Shown here one piece after another: positions 7,796 to 57,023 of a DNA stretch of 64,000 nt. Origin of the DNA: Methylobacteriaceae bacterium (GTDB taxonomy: Bacteria > Pseudomonadota > Alphaproteobacteria > Rhizobiales > Beijerinckiaceae); the NCBI GenBank assembly GCA_947444195.1, contig CANEZL010000007.1:4235-68234 (forward strand). Direction: 5' to 3'. How positions within the stretch are numbered: the first letter of the stretch is position 1; each line of letters begins with the position of its first letter. Position numbers and translations under genes: made by a program. The notes under the pieces are model-generated. The model was not told the origin of the DNA. It made no database searches and saw nothing but the letters and a program-made list of their open reading frames with translations.

Positions 7796-8362
7796 ATGAT
7801 CGCCCGGTTCTTCCGCCGCGGGAATGCCCGCCGCAGCGTGATCGAGGCGCTGCACCTGCGCGTCAACGCGGCCTCGCGCGAGGCCGCGTTGTACGAGGTC
7901 CTCGCCGTGCCGGACACGGTGGAGGGCCGCTTCGAATCCCTCGTGCTGCACACCGTGCTGATGCTGCGCGCCCTCGACCGGCTGCCCGCGCCCGCGCCGG
8001 ACGTGGCCCAGGACCTCGTGGACGCGGTCTTCCTGCAGCTCGACGCGGCCTTGCGGGAACTCGGCGTCGGCGACATCTCCGTGCCCAAGCGCATGAAGAA
8101 GCTCGGTGCCGCCTTCTACGGCCGCGCGGGCCAGTACGGCCCCGCCCTCGACGCCCGCGACGGGCCGGCCCTGCGCGCGGCGCTCGCCCGGAACGTGTTC
8201 GGCCGCGAGACGGTGGGACCCGACGCGCCGGAGGCCGCGGGCCTTGCCGCCTACGTCCAGGCCGCCGACGACGCGCTGGCCCGGGCCGATCTCGACGGCC
8301 TGCTCGGCGCAGGGCCGGCCTTCCCCGATCCTGCCGCATCCGCCCCAGGAGAGAGAGCATGA
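7796..8362 (+). CDS. Ubiquinol-cytochrome c chaperone (Cbp3 family)
   Basis: VPDTVEGRFE..LH, LRELGVGDISVPKRMKKL..AFYGR, ALARNVF. Confidence 0.85.
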   Translation: MIARFFRRGNARRSVIEALHLRVNAASREAALYEVLAVPDTVEGRFESLVLHTVLMLRALDRLPAPAPDVAQDLVDAVFLQLDAALRELGVGDISVPKRMKKLGAAFYGRAGQYGPALDARDGPALRAALARNVFGRETVGPDAPEAAGLAAYVQAADDALARADLDGLLGAGPAFPDPAASAPGERA

Positions 8363-8868
8363 GCGATCCCGGCAAACCCGGCCCCCTCTCGCGCGTCGTC
8401 AACGTCGAGCGCCTGCCGCCGGGGCGGGGCGCGGTCACCGTGGAGGCGACGCCGGCCGAGGCCGAGGCGCTCGCCAGGGATTTCGGCATTCCCGCGATCC
8501 GCGACCTCGTCGGCCGCTTCGCGGTCTCCGGCCCCACGAGCCGCCTCCTCGTCACCGGCACCGTGGAGGCGCTGGTCACGCAGGTCTGCACGGTGAGCCT
8601 CGAGCCGTTCGAGGCGCGGGTCTCCGAGCCCGTGGAGGTGACCTTCACCGACACCGACCGACTCGCGGGCACCGATGCGGAGGATGCCGACGTGCCCGAC
8701 CCGATCGTCGGCGGGCGCCTCGATTTCGGCGTCCTCACGGCCGAGTTCCTGGCGCTCGGGCTCGATCCCTATCCGCGCAGGCCCGGCATCCAGTTCGAGG
8801 AGGTCGAGGTCGGCGCCGGGGTCAAGCCGTTCGAGGCCCTGCGCACCCTGCGCGACCCTGAGGGCTGA
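8359..8868 (+). CDS. DUF177/YceD family protein
   Basis: [27 protein letters not shown]; located upstream of plsX. Confidence 0.85.
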
Positions 8869-9062
8869 GCGCCCCCGGTCGCCCCGGCGGGAGGGGGCAG
8901 GAGGCCGCGGCGGGGGCGCCCGCGGGCATGGGGACGAGAAATCGTTTGCCCGAACGGCCCGGATCGCTATTTTCCGCCGCGCTCCACGACCCCATCCGCA
9001 CCGACGGGCCGGCCCCCGCCGCAGCCCCGCCGACGCCCCAGAGGCCGCAACCCGCGATCACC

Positions 9063-10100
9063 ATGTCCCAACCCGTGTGCATCTCGCTCGACGCCATGGG
9101 CGGCGATCATGGGGCCTCGACCGTGGTGCCCGGCGCCGCCATCGCCCGCGAGCGCCATCCCGAGACGCGCTTCCTGATGTACGGCGACGAGGCCGTCATC
9201 GCCCCCCTCGTCGAGGCCGAGCCGCGGCTCAAGGGCGCGGTGGAGATCCGGCACACCACCGTCTCCGTCGCCATGGACGACAAGCCGAGCCAGGCGGTGC
9301 GCCAGGGGCGGGGCAAGTCCTCCATGTGGCAGGCGATCCAGGCGGTGCGCGACGGGCAGGCCCAGGCCTGCGTCTCGGCCGGCAATACCGGCGCGCTGAT
9401 GGCGATGTCGAAGATCTGCCTGAAGACGATGGCGGGCATCGAGCGGCCGGCCATCGCCTGCCTCTGGCCCACCGTGCGCGGCGAGAGCGTGGTGCTCGAT
9501 GTGGGCGCCACCATCGGCACCGATGCCGAGCATCTCGTGGAGATGGCGGTGATGGGCTCGGCCATGGCTCGCATCGTGCTTGATCTCGAGCGCCCGACGG
9601 TCGGCCTGCTCAACGTCGGCACCGAGGAGATGAAGGGCAACGAGGCGGTGAAGGAGGCCGCCCGCCTCCTGCGCGAGCACGACGCCGTGAACTTCGCCTA
9701 TCACGGCTTCGTCGAGGGCACCGATCTCGGCCGCGGCACCGTGGACGTGGTGGTGACGGAGGGCTTCACCGGCAACATCGCCCTGAAGACCGCCGAGGGC
9801 ACCGCCAAGCAGATCGGCACCTACCTGCGCGCCGCGATGACGCGCACGCTCTCGGCCAAGATCGGCGCGCTGTTCGCCCGCCAGGCCTTCAAGGCGCTGA
9901 AGGACAAGATGAATCCCAGCCGGGCCAATGGCGGCGTCTTCCTCGGCCTCGAGGGCATCGTCATCAAGAGCCACGGCTCGGAGAACGCGCAAGGCTTCGC
10001 CGCGGCGATCGACCTTGCCCACGACATGGCGCGCCACGACCTCATGCGCACGATCCGCGACATGCTGGACGAGACGCCGACCACGATGGCCCGCGTCTGA
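9063..10100 (+). CDS. plsX: Phosphate acyltransferase PlsX
   Basis: [54 protein letters not shown]. Confidence 0.96.
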
Positions 10101-49695: not shown

Positions 49696-51606
49696 GTGCC
49701 CCTGCCCGCGCCGATAGCCCCCGTCCTGCGCCGCCTCGGCTGGCTCGCCGGCCTGCCGCCCCTGGTCCTCCTCTGGGCCGGGGTCACCCTGCTCGCCGCG
49801 CCCGGGATCGGCGGGCGCGTGGCGGAGGAGGGGGAGGCGGTGGCGCGCACCACGCAGGATCCCGGCGGCGAGCCCTGGCTGCGGGTGAGCGCGCGGGGGC
49901 GCGACCTCCTCGCCCGCGGCGAGGCCCCGGGCGAGACGGAGCGCGCGGCCGTGCTCGCGCGCCTCGCCGCGCTGCCGAGCCCGCGCCGCATCGTCTCCGA
50001 GCTCGGCCTGATCGAGGCGGCGGCCCCCTTCGCGTGGTCGGCCGAGATCACCGGCGCGGGCGTCGCCATCGCCGGCAGCCGGCCCGCCGAGATCGGACGG
50101 CGCGCCTTCGACGAGCCGGTGGCCGCCGCGCTGCCGGGCCGCGCCCTCGACGACGGGGCCCGGGCGGCCCGCGGTGCCCCGCCGGACTTCGCCGGTGCGG
50201 TGGCCTATGCCGCCGCGCGCCTCGGCCGGCTCGCCCCGGGGGGCCGGGTGAGCGTGACCGACACGGTGATCGCGGCCTCGGGCGAGGCGGTGGACGTGGC
50301 CGCCTACGATGCCCTGCGCGGCGCCTTCGCCGAGCCGCCGCCGGGCTACAGCATCGGCCGCGTCGCGATCCTGCCGCCGACGATCGGGGATTTCCGCTTC
50401 ACCGTGGAGCGGGTGGCGGGGGGCGGCCTCGTGCTCAGCGGCTACACCGTGTCGGAGGCGGCGCGGGCGGAGATCCGCCGGGCGGCCGAGGGGGTGGCGG
50501 ACGGCGCCTTCGTGGACGACCGCACCCAGACCGCGCGCGGCCTGCCCAAGGGCGTGGAGCCGCAGGCCCTGGCCAACGCGATGCTGCAGGTGGCCGGCCT
50601 GATGGCGCGGGGCCGGGTCGCCTTCGCGGACGGCCGGGTCTCGGCGGAGGGCGACGCCCTCGACGGGCAGGCGGTGGGCGAGGCGAGCGCGATGGTGCGC
50701 ACGCGCATGCCCGCGGGCGTCGCCGCGGGCCGGGTCGATCTCGCCGTGGTGCCCCTCTCGCCCTACCGGGTCAGCATCCGCCGCGAGGGCGAGCGCGTCA
50801 GCCTCGGCGGGCACCTGCCCGATGCCGAGGCGCGGGCGCGGGTGCTGGGGCTGGTGGAGCCCCGCTTCTTCCGCGAGCCCATCCTCGACCGGACCCGGCT
50901 GGCGGCGGGCGCGCCGGCGGACCTGAACGCCGCCCTCGGGGCCGCCCTGCCGGTGCTGGCGGGCCTCGCCGAGGGGGAGATCCGGGTGGCCGACCGCAGC
51001 CTGACCCTCACCGGCACCAGCCTGTACCGGGAGAGCGCCGCGCGGGCGGGGGAGGCCCTGCGCCGGGGCCTGCCGCCGGGCTGGAGCGCCACGGTGGCGG
51101 TGGAGCCGCGCGATCCCGGCCCCCGCCAGGACGCGCAGGGCTGCCGGGCCGGCGTCGAGGCGGCCCTGGCGAAGGCCCGGCCGAGCTTCGCCCCCGGCAG
51201 CATCGCCCTCGACCCCGGCATGTACCCGACCCTCGACGCGGTGGCGGCCCTCGCTCGGGCCTGCCCCGGCCTCCGCATCGCCGTCTCCGGCCATGCCGAC
51301 CCGCCGGGGGCCAAGCCCGCCAGGGTGGAGGAGGCCAAGCCCAGCGAGACCAAGCCCGCAGAGGCGGCGGAGCCGAAGCCCGCGCCCTCCAGGCCGAAGG
51401 GGGCGAAGCCCGCCGCCAGCCCCGCCGCCAAGCCCGCACCGAAGCCCGAGGCCCCCGCCGAGCCGGCGCCGGAGGAACTTGCCCGGCTGCGGGCGCAGGC
51501 GGTGGCGGAGTACCTGTTCCAGGCGGGGGCTGGGCTCGATCAGGTCAGCCTCGCCGAGGAGCCGCCGGGGGAGCGGCGCAGCGTGGCCCTCGCCCTGAAA
51601 CCCTGA
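49696..51606 (+). CDS. Multi-BON-like repeat protein with a C-terminal OmpA-like domain
   Basis: N-terminal anchor, three P(F/Y)xxxxxR...LxG repeats, then F..GS..L...LDAVA...C....VSGHAD...RAQAV..YL...RRSV. Confidence 0.7.
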   Translation: MPLPAPIAPVLRRLGWLAGLPPLVLLWAGVTLLAAPGIGGRVAEEGEAVARTTQDPGGEPWLRVSARGRDLLARGEAPGETERAAVLARLAALPSPRRIVSELGLIEAAAPFAWSAEITGAGVAIAGSRPAEIGRRAFDEPVAAALPGRALDDGARAARGAPPDFAGAVAYAAARLGRLAPGGRVSVTDTVIAASGEAVDVAAYDALRGAFAEPPPGYSIGRVAILPPTIGDFRFTVERVAGGGLVLSGYTVSEAARAEIRRAAEGVADGAFVDDRTQTARGLPKGVEPQALANAMLQVAGLMARGRVAFADGRVSAEGDALDGQAVGEASAMVRTRMPAGVAAGRVDLAVVPLSPYRVSIRREGERVSLGGHLPDAEARARVLGLVEPRFFREPILDRTRLAAGAPADLNAALGAALPVLAGLAEGEIRVADRSLTLTGTSLYRESAARAGEALRRGLPPGWSATVAVEPRDPGPRQDAQGCRAGVEAALAKARPSFAPGSIALDPGMYPTLDAVAALARACPGLRIAVSGHADPPGAKPARVEEAKPSETKPAEAAEPKPAPSRPKGAKPAASPAAKPAPKPEAPAEPAPEELARLRAQAVAEYLFQAGAGLDQVSLAEEPPGERRSVALALKP

Positions 51607-51640
51607 TCCCGCCCGCGGGGCTTGCGCGCGGGCGCCGGGG

Positions 51641-51940
51641 ATGGTCTTGGCCCCCGGGTCAATCCGGAGATCGTGGTTCACCGTGGTGGCACTGCTCGCC
51701 GGCCTCTGGCCGGGACTGGCCGGAGCGCTGCTCCTCGGCCTCGCCGTGGGCGCCCTGGCCGGATGGCCGCGGGGCTACGCGGTGCCCGTCGGCCTCGGCG
51801 CGGCGTTGGCCGGGCTCGGCGGGCTGGCGCTCACGGGCCTCGTGCCGGGGGTGGGCGGGGTCTGGATCGAGAGCGCGGCGCTGATGCTCGCGGCCTACGG
51901 GGCGGGCTGCGGCCTGGGCAGCCTCGCCCATCCCCGCTGA
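51641..51940 (+). CDS. Small hypothetical membrane protein
   Basis: Three hydrophobic segments, LWPGLAG, W.ESAALMLAAYG.GC.LG. Confidence 0.6.
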   Translation: MVLAPGSIRRSWFTVVALLAGLWPGLAGALLLGLAVGALAGWPRGYAVPVGLGAALAGLGGLALTGLVPGVGGVWIESAALMLAAYGAGCGLGSLAHPR

Positions 51941-52033
51941 GGATCAAGGAACCGCGGCCCCCCGTCCCCGCGTTCTGTCCGGCAAGGGGCCGCCCGCGCG
52001 GCCCGTCCCGACAACCGGCACAGGAAGCGTCCC

Positions 52034-52351
52034 ATGCCCCACCGGAAGCTGCGCCACGCCGCCTTGCGCCCCCGCGCCGGCGGCCCCGCCACCGCCCTTT
52101 TCCTCGGCGGCCTCGCCCTCTCGGGCTTCACCGCCCTCGGCATGGACTGGATCGAGCCCGCCGCCGCCCAGACCGCGGGCGGCACCGTCGAGCGGCCCGC
52201 CGCGGCGCGGGCGGACCGGCGGGTGGACGATCCGGCCGCGGCCGCCATGCCCACGGGCACCGGCAGCGTGCGGGACGTGCCCCGCGGAGACGGGACCGGA
52301 CGTCCGAGCCAGAGCCGCATCGACAACGCGGCGCCCGCCCCGGCCCGCTGA
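52034..52351 (+). CDS. Hypothetical protein with one TM segment
   Basis: RBS-like AGGAAG, hydrophobic ALFLGGLALSGFTALG, host-like codons. Confidence 0.5.
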   Translation: MPHRKLRHAALRPRAGGPATALFLGGLALSGFTALGMDWIEPAAAQTAGGTVERPAAARADRRVDDPAAAAMPTGTGSVRDVPRGDGTGRPSQSRIDNAAPAPAR

Positions 52352-52435
52352 CCCCCGCCTCCGGCCCGCGACGCAACCGCGGCGCCCTCCCGCCCGTTAG
52401 CGGGCGGGGGCGCCCGGTCCCCGCGGGAGGATGCC

Positions 52436-53110
52436 ATGGGTCTGCTCGATTCGGTGATCGGCGGCGTGCTCGGTCAGGTGCTCGGCGGCGGGCAGCGGGG
52501 GGGCGCAGGCGGCGCCATGTCGCCCCTGGTCAAGGCGCTCCTCATGCTGCTCCTCGCCAAGGGCGCGAGCGGCGGCTTCGGCGACATTTTTGGGCGCGGC
52601 CATGGCGGGGAACCCGGCCCCGAGGCCGACCGGTCGGACCGCTCCCCCGGCGCCGGCCCCTACGGCCGCGACGGCACCGGCGGCTGGGACCAGGACGGCG
52701 CCCGCCGCGACGCCCCGCTGCCCCCCGGCGATTTCAGCGATCTCTCCGGCATGCTCGACGGCCCCGGCGGCCCCGACCGCTCCCCCGGCGCCGGCCCCTA
52801 CGCCCATCTCGACCACGAACAGGGCGAGCGGCCCGATCTCGGCGGCCTCGACGGGCTGATCGACGGCTTCCGCAAGGGCGGCCTCGGCGAGGTGATCGAG
52901 TCCTGGATCGGCCCCGGCCAGAACCACCCCGTCCAGCCGAACCAACTCGCCCAGGCGCTCGGCCCCGACACCATCGACACCCTGGAGCGTGCCACGGGGA
53001 TGAACCGCGACACGCTGCTCGCCCAACTCGCCCAGGTGCTCCCGCAGGTGATCGACGGGCTCACGCCACAGGGACGGGTGCCGGGTGAGGGGGAGCGACG
53101 GGGGTGGTGA
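52436..53110 (+). CDS. YidB/DUF937-family protein with an internal low-complexity insertion
   Basis: MGLLDSVIGG, GLDGLIDGFRKGGLGEVIESWIGPGQNHPV, LAQVLPQVIDGLTPQG. Confidence 0.85.
   Translation: MGLLDSVIGGVLGQVLGGGQRGGAGGAMSPLVKALLMLLLAKGASGGFGDIFGRGHGGEPGPEADRSDRSPGAGPYGRDGTGGWDQDGARRDAPLPPGDFSDLSGMLDGPGGPDRSPGAGPYAHLDHEQGERPDLGGLDGLIDGFRKGGLGEVIESWIGPGQNHPVQPNQLAQALGPDTIDTLERATGMNRDTLLAQLAQVLPQVIDGLTPQGRVPGEGERRGW
52637..52802 (+). repeat. 28-bp perfect direct repeat inside the yidB-like gene (encodes DRSPGAGPY twice)
   Basis: GACCGCTCCCCCGGCGCCGGCCCCTACG at 52637-52664 and 52775-52802. Confidence 0.85.
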
Positions 53111-53402
53111 AAATTTTTTAAGTCAAATAAGTTGTCTCCTAAATATTTTGGTTCCTACGCGCGCTATCATTTTGCGGCGTAATTTATTGGGGTTAATTTT
53201 TCACATGCAGATATATTTTGGGCGATCTTATATTAATCAAGATGTATCGGTATCTGTATTATCGTGATTTGAGATTCCACCATGCAGTAAATCCTAATTT
53301 CTGCCTCCCAGTTGCATTTTTGCTTCAACGTAAGCCTATTCGAAATCAACCTAAGGCAGTAACTTGCGCTCGTAGGCGTGAGGCGCGTTAGGGAGAGCAA
53401 TT

Positions 53403-54779
53403 ATGCCATTAAGTGAATTTCTTATACAAGAGCTAAATCTCGATTTGCTGAATATTCGCATTGGAAGGCAAACAGATCAAAGATCAGCAATCCAGGCGAT
53501 GATCGCGGATCAAAAGCAAAAGCTCGTAAATTTGGCTTTGGACATAATTGATATGGGCGGCCTTAGTCCGGGCGAACCCATTTGGGTCACTGTGGATACA
53601 GACAATCCTGGCAAACAGATTGTCCTCGAAGGTAACAGGAGAATTGCTGCTTTAAAAATCATGGAGAATCCTAGATTGGCCGAAGGAACAGAAGTATACA
53701 CTTCATTCGTCCAGCTTGGAAAAGACTTTACTGAAAAACCCATTCGTAAAATTGAGGGTCAAGTGTTTGCTTCCCGTGAAGAAGCTTGGCCTTGGATAGA
53801 GCGAAGGCATATGGGCGCGGCATCAGGAGTCGCGCTCCAGAGATGGCGTTCGCTTGCCAAAGAGCGTTCTCGCGCCGGTGGAACCGGATCGGTTCGGCGC
53901 TCTCTTTTGGTGCTCGACTTCCTCGACGACGGCACAGACGAATTTGGTGATGTTGGCGATGTTATTGAAGCCAAATCAACTACGGTAGATCGTGTTTTAA
54001 ATAATCCGAACATAAAAGATCTGCTAGGAATCACGATCAATAGAACAGATCGTAAAATATCATTCGACAATGGGGATGAATTAGCGGGCCGCAGGCTCTT
54101 ACGTAATTTGATCGCGGAGATGGCAAAACCCGATTTTAAGTTTAGCAAGATTAGAGATGAAACAGACAGATTGAATTTTATCCGCGGGTTTGCAGATCAA
54201 TCAGTGCATGGGAGCGGTACTGCAGAAAATCCTGAAACAAAAAGTCCGGCCCCCCAAGAAATGCCTCAGTCAACTTCATCGCGGAAATCACGTTTAACCG
54301 ATCCTATTCGGAGCACGCTTGCGCCTCGAACAGGACCTCGCACAATTGCAAACGTTCAGGGGCTTCGTCTGAATAGAATTTATCGTGAGTGCCGCGAAAT
54401 AAAGCTTGATGGCAATGAGAACGCCGCTGCATTTTTATTACGCGTGTTCTTAGAGTTGAGTAGCGAAGCTTTTCTTATAGAAAAATCTATATCGATACCG
54501 GCCAAACATTCTGGCAAGAAGGTGTATTGGGGTGAATTTGGAATAACTTTAGAAGATAAAATCAACGCGGTAATGCCGATTATAGATACGACGCCGAAAA
54601 CTAAACAACAGCTCAAACCTGCACGGATCGCGATTGCAGATAAAGAGCGAGAAGGGTCAATCGATACGCTGCATGCATATCTTCATAATCTCAATCTGAC
54701 ACCATCTCCTGAGGCTCTGCGGGCAGCCTGGGACACGTGGGAAATGTATCTCACTTTGCTTCACACGGCTCGCCGCTAG
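53403..54779 (+). CDS. ParB/Srx-like N-terminal domain protein with a putative HEPN-like C-terminal domain
   Basis: L.LD..N.R...LA.DI...G..P.E..V...IVLEGNRRIAALK (ParB/Srx motif); C-terminal NAAAFLLRVFLELS...SIDTLHAYLHN...WD. Confidence 0.7.
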   Translation: MPLSEFLIQELNLDLLNIRIGRQTDQRSAIQAMIADQKQKLVNLALDIIDMGGLSPGEPIWVTVDTDNPGKQIVLEGNRRIAALKIMENPRLAEGTEVYTSFVQLGKDFTEKPIRKIEGQVFASREEAWPWIERRHMGAASGVALQRWRSLAKERSRAGGTGSVRRSLLVLDFLDDGTDEFGDVGDVIEAKSTTVDRVLNNPNIKDLLGITINRTDRKISFDNGDELAGRRLLRNLIAEMAKPDFKFSKIRDETDRLNFIRGFADQSVHGSGTAENPETKSPAPQEMPQSTSSRKSRLTDPIRSTLAPRTGPRTIANVQGLRLNRIYRECREIKLDGNENAAAFLLRVFLELSSEAFLIEKSISIPAKHSGKKVYWGEFGITLEDKINAVMPIIDTTPKTKQQLKPARIAIADKEREGSIDTLHAYLHNLNLTPSPEALRAAWDTWEMYLTLLHTARR

Positions 54780-54836
54780 TGCTGGCCAGCATGCAATAAA
54801 ATCGCTAGATGCTTGGTCGAGTCTGGAGACCCACAG

Positions 54837-55691
54837 ATGTTTGATAGCCCGCTACGATACCCTGGGGGCAAGGGGCGGCTTACGCAATATGTTATTGATT
54901 TGATTGAAATGAATGATTTAGGGGGAGGGCATTATGTGGAAACGTATGCTGGGGGTGCCGGCATAGCTGTCACGCTTCTGTATCTAGAATATGTGTCTCA
55001 CGTCCATCTCAATGATATAGATAAGGCTGTATATTCATTTTGGAAGGCGGCCATTGAGAGTACGGATAGTTTTGTAAAGCTTATCCATGAGACTCCACTA
55101 AATATAGATGAAAGACTACGACAGAAAGCGATATATAAGGACTGCAATTCAAGTTTTCTGGATTTAGGATTTGCTACGTTTTACCTTAATCGCACTAACC
55201 GCTCAGGCATTATACACGGCGGTGTGATTGGCGGAAGCAAACAGGATGGCGTTTACAAGATAGATGCTCGTTTTAATAGGAAAGAACTTGCTCGTCGTGT
55301 CGAGAAGCTAGCTAGTTATAAATCGCGCATAAGTTTATACAATAAAGACGCGGCAGATATAATTGCTTGTGATCTGTCCAATATTCCAAAAAAAACATTG
55401 GTTTATCTGGACCCGCCATACTACGCCAACGGAAGTAGACTTTACAGAAACACCTACAAGCATAAAGACCATGCACAAATAGCCGATTTGACGCGCACTA
55501 TTGAGCAGCCCTGGATTGTCTCGTATGATGACGCTCCGGAAGTATGCAGTTTATATAAGGAATATCGACAACAAAAATTCGGCCTTGGATATTCCGCTAA
55601 TTCTAGATACAAAGGTACTGAAGTTATGATCTACAGCGATCAGGTGAAAATACCAGGCCTTGTAGAGCCTTTTAGAGGTTTTGCAGCCTAA
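54837..55691 (+). CDS. Dam/D12-class N6-adenine DNA methyltransferase
   Basis: SPLRYPGGKGRL (motif X), YVETYAGGAG (I), LNDID (II), FYLNRTNRSG, VYLDPPYY (IV), WIVSYD; GGAG RBS before ATG 54837. Confidence 0.93.
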   Translation: MFDSPLRYPGGKGRLTQYVIDLIEMNDLGGGHYVETYAGGAGIAVTLLYLEYVSHVHLNDIDKAVYSFWKAAIESTDSFVKLIHETPLNIDERLRQKAIYKDCNSSFLDLGFATFYLNRTNRSGIIHGGVIGGSKQDGVYKIDARFNRKELARRVEKLASYKSRISLYNKDAADIIACDLSNIPKKTLVYLDPPYYANGSRLYRNTYKHKDHAQIADLTRTIEQPWIVSYDDAPEVCSLYKEYRQQKFGLGYSANSRYKGTEVMIYSDQVKIPGLVEPFRGFAA

Positions 55692-55763
55692 AAATCTAAA
55701 GTTTCATGTATGTATTTTATATTCTGTGAATATTATTGAAAATCCGACTGGTGATGCGCCGGG

Positions 55764-57023
55764 TTACACCCGCCGCATCACCAGCGACGCATTCGTCCCG
55801 CCAAACCCAAACGAGTTCGACAAAGCCACGTCCACCCGCTTGCGCTTGGCCTCGTGCGGCACGAGGTCGATCTTGGTCTCGACGCTGGGGTTGTCGAGGT
55901 TGAGCGTCGGCGGGAGGACGCCGTCGCGGATGGTGAGGATGGAGAAGATCGCCTCCACGGAGCCGGCGGCGCCCAGCAGGTGGCCGATGGCCGACTTGGT
56001 GGAGGACATGGAGGCTTGTGGAGCCGCGTCGCCGAGCAGGCGCTCCACGGCCTTCAGCTCCAATTCGTCGCCCATGGGCGTCGAGGTGCCGTGGGCGTTG
56101 ATGTAGTCGATCTGGGACGGGTCGATGCCCGCGCGCTTCACGGCGGCGCTCATGCAGCGGAAGGCGCCGTCCCCGTCCGGCGAGGGGGAGGTGATGTGGT
56201 AGGCGTCCCCCGAGAGGCCGTAGCCGATGATCTCGGCGTAGATCTTGGCGCCGCGGGCCTTGGCGTGCGCGTACTCCTCCAGCACCACGATGCCGGCGCC
56301 CTCGCCCATGACGAAGCCGTCGCGGTCGCGGTCGTAGGGGCGCGAGGCCTGGACCGGGCGGTCGTTGAAGCCGGTGGACAGCGCCCGGCAGGCGGCGAAG
56401 CCCGCCAGCGACAGGCGGTTCACGGGGGATTCCGCGCCGCCCGCCACCATCACGTCCGCGTCGCCGAAGGCGATGAGGCGGGCCGCGTCGCCGATGGCGT
56501 GGGCGCCGGTGGAGCAGGCGGTGACGACCGCGTGGTTCGGGCCCTTCAGCCCGTGGGCGATGGAGATCTGCCCCGAGGCGAGGTTGATGATGCGGCCGGG
56601 GATGAAGAAGGGCGAGACCCGGCGCGGGCCCTTCTCGTGCAGGGTGATCGAGGCGTCGTAGATGCCGCCGATGCCGCCGATGCCGGAGCCCACGAGCACG
56701 CCCGTGGCGCACTGGTCCTCATGGGAGGTCGGGTGCCAGTCGGCGTCGTCCAGCGCCTCCTTGGCGGCGGCGATGGCGTAGACGATGAAGGGATCGACCT
56801 TGCGCTGCTCCTTCACCTCCATCGCCGCGTCGGGGTTGAAGGTGCCGTTCGTGCCGTCGCCGAGGGGAATCTGGCAGGCGATCTTGCAGGCGAGATCGTC
56901 GGTCTCGAAGGAGGAGACCCGGGCCGCGCCGCTGTCCCCGGCGATCAGACGGCTCCAGACGTGCTCGACACCGCTGCCGAGCGGCGTGACCATGCCCAGA
57001 CCCGTGACGACCACACGCCGCAT
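55764..57023 (-). CDS. fabF: Beta-ketoacyl-ACP synthase II
   Basis: MRRVVVTGLG, VTACSTGAHAIG, YINAHGTST, KSAIGHLLGAAG, SNSFGFGGTN. Confidence 0.97.
   Translation of the reverse strand: MRRVVVTGLGMVTPLGSGVEHVWSRLIAGDSGAARVSSFETDDLACKIACQIPLGDGTNGTFNPDAAMEVKEQRKVDPFIVYAIAAAKEALDDADWHPTSHEDQCATGVLVGSGIGGIGGIYDASITLHEKGPRRVSPFFIPGRIINLASGQISIAHGLKGPNHAVVTACSTGAHAIGDAARLIAFGDADVMVAGGAESPVNRLSLAGFAACRALSTGFNDRPVQASRPYDRDRDGFVMGEGAGIVVLEEYAHAKARGAKIYAEIIGYGLSGDAYHITSPSPDGDGAFRCMSAAVKRAGIDPSQIDYINAHGTSTPMGDELELKAVERLLGDAAPQASMSSTKSAIGHLLGAAGSVEAIFSILTIRDGVLPPTLNLDNPSVETKIDLVPHEAKRKRVDVALSNSFGFGGTNASLVMRRV

Follow-up and report, generated by a model that had tools for sequence, protein, structure and literature searches.

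We examined a 64,000-nucleotide (nt) stretch of contig CANEZL010000007.1 from a Methylobacteriaceae bacterium (called the window here), in which two adjacent genes, A and B, form the cargo of an AT-rich islet. The pair is almost certainly an intact homologue of PD-lambda-5, an anti-phage system found in Escherichia coli. As a whole, the reading that we favour, and hold to be rather probable, is of an intact PD-lambda-5 system in which B, a DNA methyltransferase, would mark DNA as self and A would be the effector acting on unmarked DNA. The two genes lie in the window as follows.

53403-54779, + strand: gene A, PD-Lambda-5_A homologue of 458 amino acids (aa), with an ATG start and a PADLOC match.
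54837-55691, + strand: gene B, PD-Lambda-5_B homologue, an alpha-group D12-class DNA methyltransferase of 284 aa (PADLOC, Pfam).

Both proteins were compared with the PADLOC models. A matched the PD-Lambda-5_A model PDLC04009 over its full length, in two stretches around a linker (E 7.7e-135, 448 bits), and 25 further PD-Lambda-5_A models. B matched the PD-Lambda-5_B model PDLC04018 over residues 10-283 (E 1.4e-115) and also the MTase_II model ("Type II methyltransferase"; E 4.8e-102). Hidden Markov model E-values of 1e-135 and 1e-115 exclude chance. The genes follow each other on one strand, A then B, with an operon-like gap of 57 nt (33 nt with the alternative TTG start of B described below). 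PD-lambda-5 is defined operationally by matches to both models in adjacent genes, and by that definition the pair is a PD-lambda-5 system. The original prediction, made from the DNA letters alone, had named a resemblance to PD-lambda-5, and the two matches bear this out. It had also placed the pair in a non-classical restriction-modification (RM) or methylation-guarded abortive infection (Abi) class, in agreement with the models matched and with the view of the prototype's authors. The pair is a further copy of a known system; what is novel is the host, the solitary chromosomal islet setting and the subfamily. The novelty that the prediction implied is removed by this match and the function is not, as the prediction itself had allowed.

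The prototype came from a functional selection in E. coli ECOR7 (Vassallo 2022, PMC9519451; RCQ13837.1 and RCQ13838.1), and the supplementary table of that study labels it "ParB/HEPN, methyltransferase". It guards E. coli against 9 of the 10 phages tested, best against T-even phages, and the authors regard it as a compacted "RM+Abi" system (PMC9519451). It was cloned in an mrr-deleted host, for a reason not stated there (PMC9519451); this choice suggests that the prototype methyltransferase modifies DNA in vivo. The authors' HHpred analysis gave ParBc at 96.4%, DUF4145 at 35.6% and HEPN_RiboL-PSP at 8% (PMC9519451). Later papers repeat the description of PD-lambda-5 or count its occurrences; no mechanistic study was found in the searchable literature.

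Like the window pair, the prototype consists of two co-oriented genes, encoding a protein with a ParB N-terminal part and a helical C-terminal half and then a D12-class methyltransferase. In both first proteins the ParB call is strong and the HEPN call is weak. The settings differ. The window host has a GC content of approximately 72% and is alphaproteobacterium-like, whereas the prototype host is E. coli. The window pair is chromosomal, in a 2.6-kb islet with no phage or mobility genes, whereas the prototype lies in a prophage, a location that is typical of the prototype and does not define the family. Window A has 458 aa and belongs to the subfamily of model PDLC04009, whereas the HHpred table of the prototype has a match reaching residue 498. 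Enterobacterial members are approximately 25% (A) and 42% (B) identical to the window proteins, and the likeness to the ECOR7 prototype rests on the PADLOC models.

Both window proteins keep all residues that are at least 85% conserved in the family, apart from G144A and K198N in A and W93R and I236V in B. K198N and I236V are the milder exceptions; G144A and W93R were checked against relatives. A144 is found in window A and its three closest relatives, with glycine in every other aligned sequence, and residue 93 of B is arginine in the window and tryptophan in 97% of relatives. As candidate lesions both were rejected, being common to the closest relatives and hence subclade traits. The DERLRQKA(I/V)Y segment of window B also occurs at two other loci (L005 and L010). 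The B proteins of these loci are 69-70% identical to that of the window, the A proteins merely 45-48%, a mismatch in similarity between the two proteins that may reflect partner shuffling.

The ATG of gene A has a Shine-Dalgarno sequence, AGGGAGAG (approximately 53390-53397), 5 nt upstream. A has no match to any Pfam (none at E <= 1) or NCBIfam family, gave only spurious matches in sequence and profile searches of the PDB, and falls in a PHROGs family of unknown function (phrog_9592, E 2.7e-55). The AlphaFold2 model, built with 115 homologues, has a mean predicted local distance difference test score (pLDDT) of 89.5 and is confident except for residues 278-298. The order of its domains is that of ParB: a nucleoside triphosphate (NTP)-binding ParB domain, a central domain, a flexible linker and a C-terminal domain.

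53403-53810, + strand: residues 1-136, ParB/Srx (ParB-CTPase) fold (pLDDT 90-98 in the AlphaFold2 model, Foldseek, conservation).
53631-53642, + strand: GxxR P-motif G77-N78-R79-R80, at the start of helix 78-88.
53811-53897, + strand: residues 137-165, flexible yet conserved (S141, G142, W148, R155; pLDDT 59-71).
53898-54188, + strand: residues 166-262, helical domain with a beta-hairpin and the helix TTVDRVLN (AlphaFold2 secondary structure, Foldseek).
54189-54302, + strand: residues 263-300, disordered linker of variable length, rich in Pro, Ser, Thr and Gly (pLDDT 41-54).
54303-54779, + strand: residues 301-458 and the stop codon, all-alpha C-terminal domain of seven helices (AlphaFold2).

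The best Foldseek matches of A in the PDB are Noc, ParB and KorB (probability 0.99-1.0, E 1e-3 to 2e-2), followed by sulfiredoxin and SbnI. The VLEGNRR motif spans residues 74-80, and the GxxR within it does not vary among the 115 close homologues and keeps a conservation of at least 90% across 72 homologues from many phyla. The ParB/Srx assignment of the original prediction is upheld by the structural matches and by this motif; its glutamate, given there as E77, is E76. Box II GxxR is the phosphate-binding motif, with an arginine that is needed for NTP binding across the ParB/Srx fold (PMC12704722), and the nucleotide specificity of the ParB-CTPase fold is not predictable from sequence (PMC12704722). 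The N-terminal part of A is predicted by the model to be a ParB/Srx NTP-binding module with its phosphate motif intact. Residues conserved across phyla in the first part of the protein are N17, R19, Q26, E76-R80, K85, W131, H136, G142, W148 and R155.

The alignments to ParB, Noc and KorB, which are constructs of the N-terminal and helix-turn-helix domains, extend over 270-290 columns and take in residues 166-262 of A. These residues sit in place of the DNA-binding helix-turn-helix domain of ParB, Noc and KorB, and from the model we infer that they would bind DNA; R197, G209 and R256 are conserved across phyla in this middle part. The linker that follows shows large alignment indels and the lowest conservation in the protein. 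The C-terminal domain (C-domain) was also modelled alone, with a pLDDT of 96 and a predicted TM (pTM) score of 0.90. Its cross-phylum conserved residues are R303, E329, N340, R347, E351, H428 (nt 54684-54686) and W443, and the block 341-360 is the most conserved 20-residue stretch of A, as expected for a catalytic or essential module. From this pattern of conservation, the C-domain is probably catalytic or otherwise essential.

Whether the C-domain is of the HEPN type was considered separately. HEPN toxins (7ae6, 4nqf, 2q00, HepT 6m6w and 5yep) top its Foldseek list, with E of 1.1-6, probability of at most 0.44 and TM scores of 0.34-0.51. One HEPN match in BFVD, a viral fold library, was not significant, and a search with the C-domain against a large protein set returned merely five short fragments. 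The LHAYLHN motif lies at residues 423-429. Its histidines had been put forward as an HxxxH pair, of which H428 is conserved family-wide and H424 only among close relatives. Rx4-6H is not present, as the invariant H428 has no arginine 5-7 residues ahead of it and the conserved R347 is on another helix. Of the HEPN label in the original prediction, the remark that the motif is non-canonical stands, whereas the fold itself finds weak support (E > 1, probability <=0.44). A 2013 survey of HEPN proteins lists ParB-HEPN fusions, and also operons that combine a HEPN gene with genes for a ParB nuclease and a DNA methylase (PMC3710099). The window pair shares architecture and operon type with those but lacks Rx4-6H, and its fold matches have E > 1. 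For one such ParB-HEPN fusion, Saro_3948, membership in the A family was not confirmed; tblastn (E <= 5) gave no Novosphingobium match.

Gene B most likely starts at ATG 54837, since gene callers chose this start on identical metagenomic contigs and GGAG lies 8 nt upstream of it. The in-frame TTG at 54813, which had been proposed earlier and would give 292 aa, has no upstream Shine-Dalgarno sequence and is less likely. In the 284-aa numbering, PGGK is at residues 9-12 (nt 54861-54872), YAGGAG at 37-42 and DPPY at 192-195 (nt 55410-55421). The order is that of the alpha group: PGGK, the YAGGAG motif that binds S-adenosylmethionine (SAM), the conserved region LNRTNRSG and DPPY, and the motifs are kept family-wide. 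All motifs listed in the original prediction were thus located, VLEGNRR and LHAYLHN in A and PGGK, YAGGAG and DPPY in B. B matches PF02086, the Pfam family of D12-class N6-adenine methyltransferases (E 1.3e-16), and scores 47.3 bits against TIGR00571 dam, whose cut-off is 114.85; judged by these profiles it is D12-class and not a Dam orthologue. Across 67 homologues from many phyla, 60 positions reach an identity of at least 90%. The closest solved structure is M.CbeI (7M6B, E 2.6e-16), whose chain is named an adenine-specific DNA methyltransferase and which the depositors describe as an alpha-class N4-cytosine methyltransferase. The DPPY motif argues for adenine as the target, and by its motifs B most likely makes N6-methyladenine at a fixed short motif.

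A belongs to a large family. It comprises 320 close homologues, and its representative clusters, almost all of 440-500 aa, number 4698 at E <= 1e-3 and 1047 at E <= 1e-30. A scan with one genome per species gave 282 relatives of A; the 77 loci that we inspected are spread over Alphaproteobacteria, Betaproteobacteria, Bdellovibrionota, Bacteroidota, Bacillota, Actinomycetota, Chloroflexota, Gemmatimonadota, Acidobacteriota, Patescibacteria and an archaeal metagenome-assembled genome (MAG). A B homologue lies directly downstream of A on the same strand in approximately 70 of the 77 loci, often with overlapping open reading frames (ORFs), and is convergent with A in two. In 73 of 74 loci (L004-L080) the conservation of B exceeds that of A, with a mean identity to the window proteins of 49% for B versus 32% for A, and this conservation is even along the full length of B, including the stretch between motifs III and IV. 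Such uniformity hints, at the sequence level, at one methyltransferase specificity common to the whole family, unlike typical Type II systems.

The cassette lies more than 5 points below its flanks in GC content in 55 of 72 loci and, on this evidence, appears to behave as mobile AT-leaning cargo in most hosts. We found it in the temperate Paracoccus phage Pkon1 (p76/p75) and on plasmids of Vibrio, Kosakonia and Mesorhizobium. On a 9.6-Mb contig, a solitary A-B pair has secB on one side and pyruvate dehydrogenase genes on the other, a setting similar to that of the window pair. The P2-like Vibrio phage ValB1MD-2 (L083:1449-3888) has A split into a ParB half of 252 aa and a C-terminal half of 265 aa, followed by B. 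Both halves match PDLC03995, and a split at the linker is consistent with two separable modules.

Two further loci touch on the family from outside. The P2-like Yersinia phage HQ103 (L169:227-2327) encodes, beside the replication gene gpA, proteins of 373 and 329 aa in that order; over its first ~150 residues the 373-aa protein is similar to the ParB domain of A (32% identity). The phage has no match to B and, to judge from these sequences, probably carries a different ParB-N-terminal system in its accessory region. In E. coli IDR1900005638-01-02, within an integrative conjugative element (L170:1930-4579), a "DNA adenine methylase" gene lies downstream of one for a 573-aa "ATP-dependent nuclease", with no A. 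This methylase was found through a short DNA match, 68.5% identical, to the Kosakonia B homologue. If the methylase is a member of the B family, then B proteins also have partners of a different effector type.

The cassette in the window has sharp borders.

53111-55747, 2.6 kb: AT-rich islet, comprising the entire inserted cassette and bounded by the yidB-like stop codon (53108-53110) and the terminator-like hairpin of fabF.
53111-53402, + strand: AT-rich leader of 292 nt upstream of gene A.
55748-55784, - strand: GC-rich hairpin of 17 bp, 94% complementary with a 3-nt loop, found by inverted-repeat search; right edge of the islet.

The GC content of the islet (approximately 53111-55747) is 0.39-0.50, against 0.63-0.83 on both sides and approximately 0.72 in the window overall, and the islet is the sole low-GC tract in the 64 kb. 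The GC content at third codon positions (GC3) is 0.41 in A and 0.38 in B versus 0.91 in the yidB-like gene and 0.96 in fabF. The AT-rich DNA begins 1 nt past the yidB-like stop codon. At the other end, one arm of the hairpin consists of the last fabF codons and the stop codon, and the second arm adjoins the islet; read on the fabF strand, a T-rich islet stretch comes after it, and the hairpin is likely the fabF terminator. The islet is foreign DNA, horizontally acquired by a high-GC, alphaproteobacterium-like host. ORF, tRNA and Rfam searches of the islet gave no integrase, tRNA, Rfam match or other credible gene, and the earlier description of two co-oriented genes with foreign codon usage as its only cargo agrees with the ORFs and their GC3. 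The 292-nt leader, which contains a near-palindrome at 53138-53151, presumably holds a promoter; a sigma-70 consensus scan of it gave no strong site, and a promoter and terminator scan of the islet gave nothing over background.

The neighbours of the islet are housekeeping genes (OmpA-like, YidB, FabF, acyl carrier protein and FabD), and the flanks contain no integrase, no phage genes and no defence island. The two junctions share only the 6-nt TGGTGA and repeats at chance level, with no convincing target-site duplication. The 3.5 kb upstream of the islet (49696-51606 and 51600-53100 in the window) has a GC content of 0.78-0.83, high even for the host genome, and codes for two proteins, one of 636 aa that is rich in Ala and Pro and has a weak OmpA-like match at its C-terminus, the other YidB-like and rich in Gly. 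Exact look-ups of the YidB-like protein and FabF gave a 1-kb contig for the first and nothing for the second. A metagenome scan with FabF returned 80 loci, none with YidB, A or B adjoining fabF, and no empty site. In the closest of them (L162, contig Ga0325401_1072232), FabF is 91% and the DNA 87.6% identical to the window. The similarity ends exactly at the fabF stop codon, and the distal hairpin arm is absent. Past fabF this contig has approximately 1 kb of unrelated, lower-GC DNA (L162:877-1900, GC 0.47-0.56) with a 138-aa membrane-protein-like ORF. From this comparison, the 3' flank of fabF looks like a variable insertion spot in the lineage.

The following steps are proposed for the system. 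B, dependent on SAM, would mark the resident genome as self. A would bind DNA without that mark through its central domain, and NTP binding at the ParB domain would drive dimerisation or clamping, which in turn would switch on a damaging activity. The damage could be nicking or blocking of DNA by the ParB-type module, or cleavage of RNA by a HEPN-like C-domain, so that infection is halted and the cell is sacrificed. Two ParB/Srx members, RK2 ParB and Osa, have reported nuclease activity. We infer, and do not observe, methylation as the self mark, the reading of that mark by A and the domain that does the damage; taken singly, the self-mark role of methylation has in our estimate about an even chance of being right.

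Several known systems help to place the pair. The canonical CTP clamps ParB, Noc and KorB have the domain order of A and are its best structural matches in the PDB, but A has no Pfam ParBc or helix-turn-helix match and no ParA partner, its partner being a methyltransferase. The C-terminal domain is also different, a small dimerisation domain in canonical ParB and a larger conserved helical module with invariant R, E, N and H in A. A role as a ParABS partition protein was rejected, since no ParA-like gene lies beside the islet and the partner is a methyltransferase. GmrSD, BrxU, SspE and DndB resemble A in having a ParB/Srx NTP-binding domain with a motif of the [DE]G[QN]x-R type and in belonging to systems that read or regulate DNA modification. 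In GmrSD, BrxU and SspE a DUF262 ParB/Srx NTPase is fused to an HNH/DUF1524 nuclease; A, unlike these proteins and DndB, has no match to PF03235 (DUF262), PF14072 (DndB), HNH or DUF1524. Systems of this type attack modified DNA or sense phosphorothioate, whereas the methyltransferase partner of A implies the opposite logic, protection by modification. Type II RM systems such as that of M.CbeI (PDB 7M6B), with a small methyltransferase and one partner gene inherited as a unit, are organised like the window pair. A, however, has no known restriction-nuclease fold, and B has the adenine-type DPPY whereas M.CbeI is an N4-cytosine enzyme. By analogy, the pair would work most like a modification-guarded defence based on a ParB/Srx protein.

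A number of observations weigh against the favoured reading. Searches of Pfam, NCBIfam and the PDB, and with Foldseek, gave A no known restriction-nuclease fold (PD-(D/E)xK, HNH, GIY-YIG, PLD or half-pipe); the original prediction had likewise recognised none of the first three motifs in A, and a characterised Type II restriction endonuclease or a partition protein, either of which it had named as contrary evidence, did not emerge, there being no such nuclease fold and no ParA. The HEPN assignment is weak in the model, statistically unsupported and lacking Rx4-6H. No biochemical activity of any PD-lambda-5 protein is reported in the searchable papers. The closest solved relative of B is an N4-cytosine enzyme, so that the modified base is not certain. 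Protection is known for the E. coli ECOR7 pair, and that of the window pair is predicted from homology. T-even phages resist most RM systems (PMC9519451), and strong protection against them would fit poorly with simple cleavage of unmethylated sites; it favours a cytosine-free recognition site or an arm directed at RNA or the host.

Further points of this kind come from A genes without an adjacent B. In an alphaproteobacterial MAG (CAVPFZ010000007.1, L011:7977-10100), A is intact (465 aa) and the downstream B is broken into several short ORFs, through either real decay with the effector kept or long-read assembly errors. Plasmid p4 of Azospirillum argentinense Az39 (L167:5001-6305) carries a solitary, intact-looking A among sugar-metabolism genes, with no methyltransferase beside it; this protein keeps DGNRR, RRH, R347/E351, H428 and W443. 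In an A. ramasamyi plasmid (NZ_CP029831.1, H66, 315561-317708), an A-like gene is interrupted by an element of the IS5 family of insertion sequences. A Bdellovibrionales MAG (OZ253553.1, L030) has a bona fide A at 8001-9290 (PADLOC E 1.3e-120) and no D12 methyltransferase within 8 kb of it. There A is convergent to a complete dndBCDEA phosphorothioation cluster (L030:2925-15631) and abuts the dndA-like gene. The cluster comprises DndB (PF14072, E 1.2e-129), a DndC-like PAPS reductase, a DndD-like ATPase, DndE and a DndA-like desulfurase, and an SF2 helicase and a second SMC-like ATPase are encoded just upstream of A on its strand. Restriction partners of Dnd modules are usually found in the position that A occupies here (PMC10853773). 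At this single locus A may pair with phosphorothioation instead of methylation, and mere adjacency in a defence island is possible. The intact A genes without B (L011, L030 and L167) weaken the strict version of the favoured reading, in which A always kills unless B is present; they could be due to assembly errors or to a methyltransferase gene elsewhere.

These observations also bear on what A may do instead. The pair may be a plain Type II-like RM system, with A a sequence-specific DNase that uses a catalytic centre in the ParB/Srx fold to cut unmethylated B sites and a C-domain that only dimerises. The methyltransferase partner, called obligate given its presence in approximately 70 of 77 loci, the nuclease activity that the literature ascribes to the ParB/Srx superfamily, the match of B to the PADLOC Type II methyltransferase model and the solitary two-gene layout without mobility genes, like that of many RM units, all suit this explanation. 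We nevertheless find it distinctly unlikely. A lacks PD-(D/E)xK, HNH, GIY-YIG and PLD domains, it stays intact where B is degraded or absent, and its most conserved block and the invariant charged residues of the C-domain exceed what dimerisation needs; the prototype is strongest against T-even phages, against which most RM systems fail, and B is uniformly conserved across phyla, in contrast to the diversifying specificities of Type II enzymes. The activity of the prototype against glucosyl-hydroxymethylcytosine phages (PMC9519451) speaks for a guard, in which A is a latent HEPN-type RNase or toxin and B an antitoxin, not a self/non-self marker; B would restrain A through genome methylation or contact, and A would be set off once a phage inhibits or outpaces the methyltransferase, so that the cell is killed or arrested. 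The prototype authors' RM+Abi interpretation points the same way (PMC9519451), as do the HEPN proteins as nearest folds to the C-domain, the survey that lists ParB-HEPN fusions and operons of HEPN, ParB nuclease and methylase (PMC3710099), and a gene order, effector first and methyltransferase second with often overlapping ORFs, that resembles toxin-antitoxin operons. Against this, Rx4-6H is missing, the fold matches are not significant and some genomes hold an intact A without B, and we regard a guard of this kind as doubtful.

A role outside defence would make B an orphan epigenetic methyltransferase and A a ParB-like or DndB-like, NTP-modulated regulator of B, or the two a selfish addiction cassette. 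DndB, itself a ParB/Srx protein, is described as an ATP-modulated negative regulator of a DNA-modification operon, a dnd cluster adjoins one A homologue, and the islet lies among housekeeping genes, outside any defence island. Yet that dnd cluster has its own DndB, A matches neither the Pfam DndB nor the ParBc family and has no ParA gene nearby, the cloned E. coli homologues give protection against phage (PMC9519451), and carriage by temperate phages and plasmids with foreign composition in most hosts is typical of defence cargo. This explanation is most improbable. A reading that is unlikely, though well above the last, treats A as an NTP-gated ParB-like clamp that loads only on DNA without the host modification, neither a conventional nuclease nor an RNase. 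Once loaded, A would silence or damage the DNA through the conserved C-terminal module. It would be portable between chemistries: usually N6-adenine methylation by B, possibly phosphorothioation beside the dnd cluster, and possibly a housekeeping methyltransferase for the solitary Azospirillum A.

For the window itself, the two "hypothetical" genes of the islet can be named as a PD-lambda-5 defence cassette. The interest lies in the family and not in this copy, since the family is widespread, gives broad protection and has an effector without a recognisable nuclease. Targets for mutation are G77-R80 in the ParB domain and R303, E329, N340, R347, E351 and H428 in the C-domain, and the split A, the solitary A and the A beside the dnd cluster are informative natural variants. 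If A is a modification-sensitive switch of the ParB type, the family would link the field of CTP/NTP clamps with RM biology.

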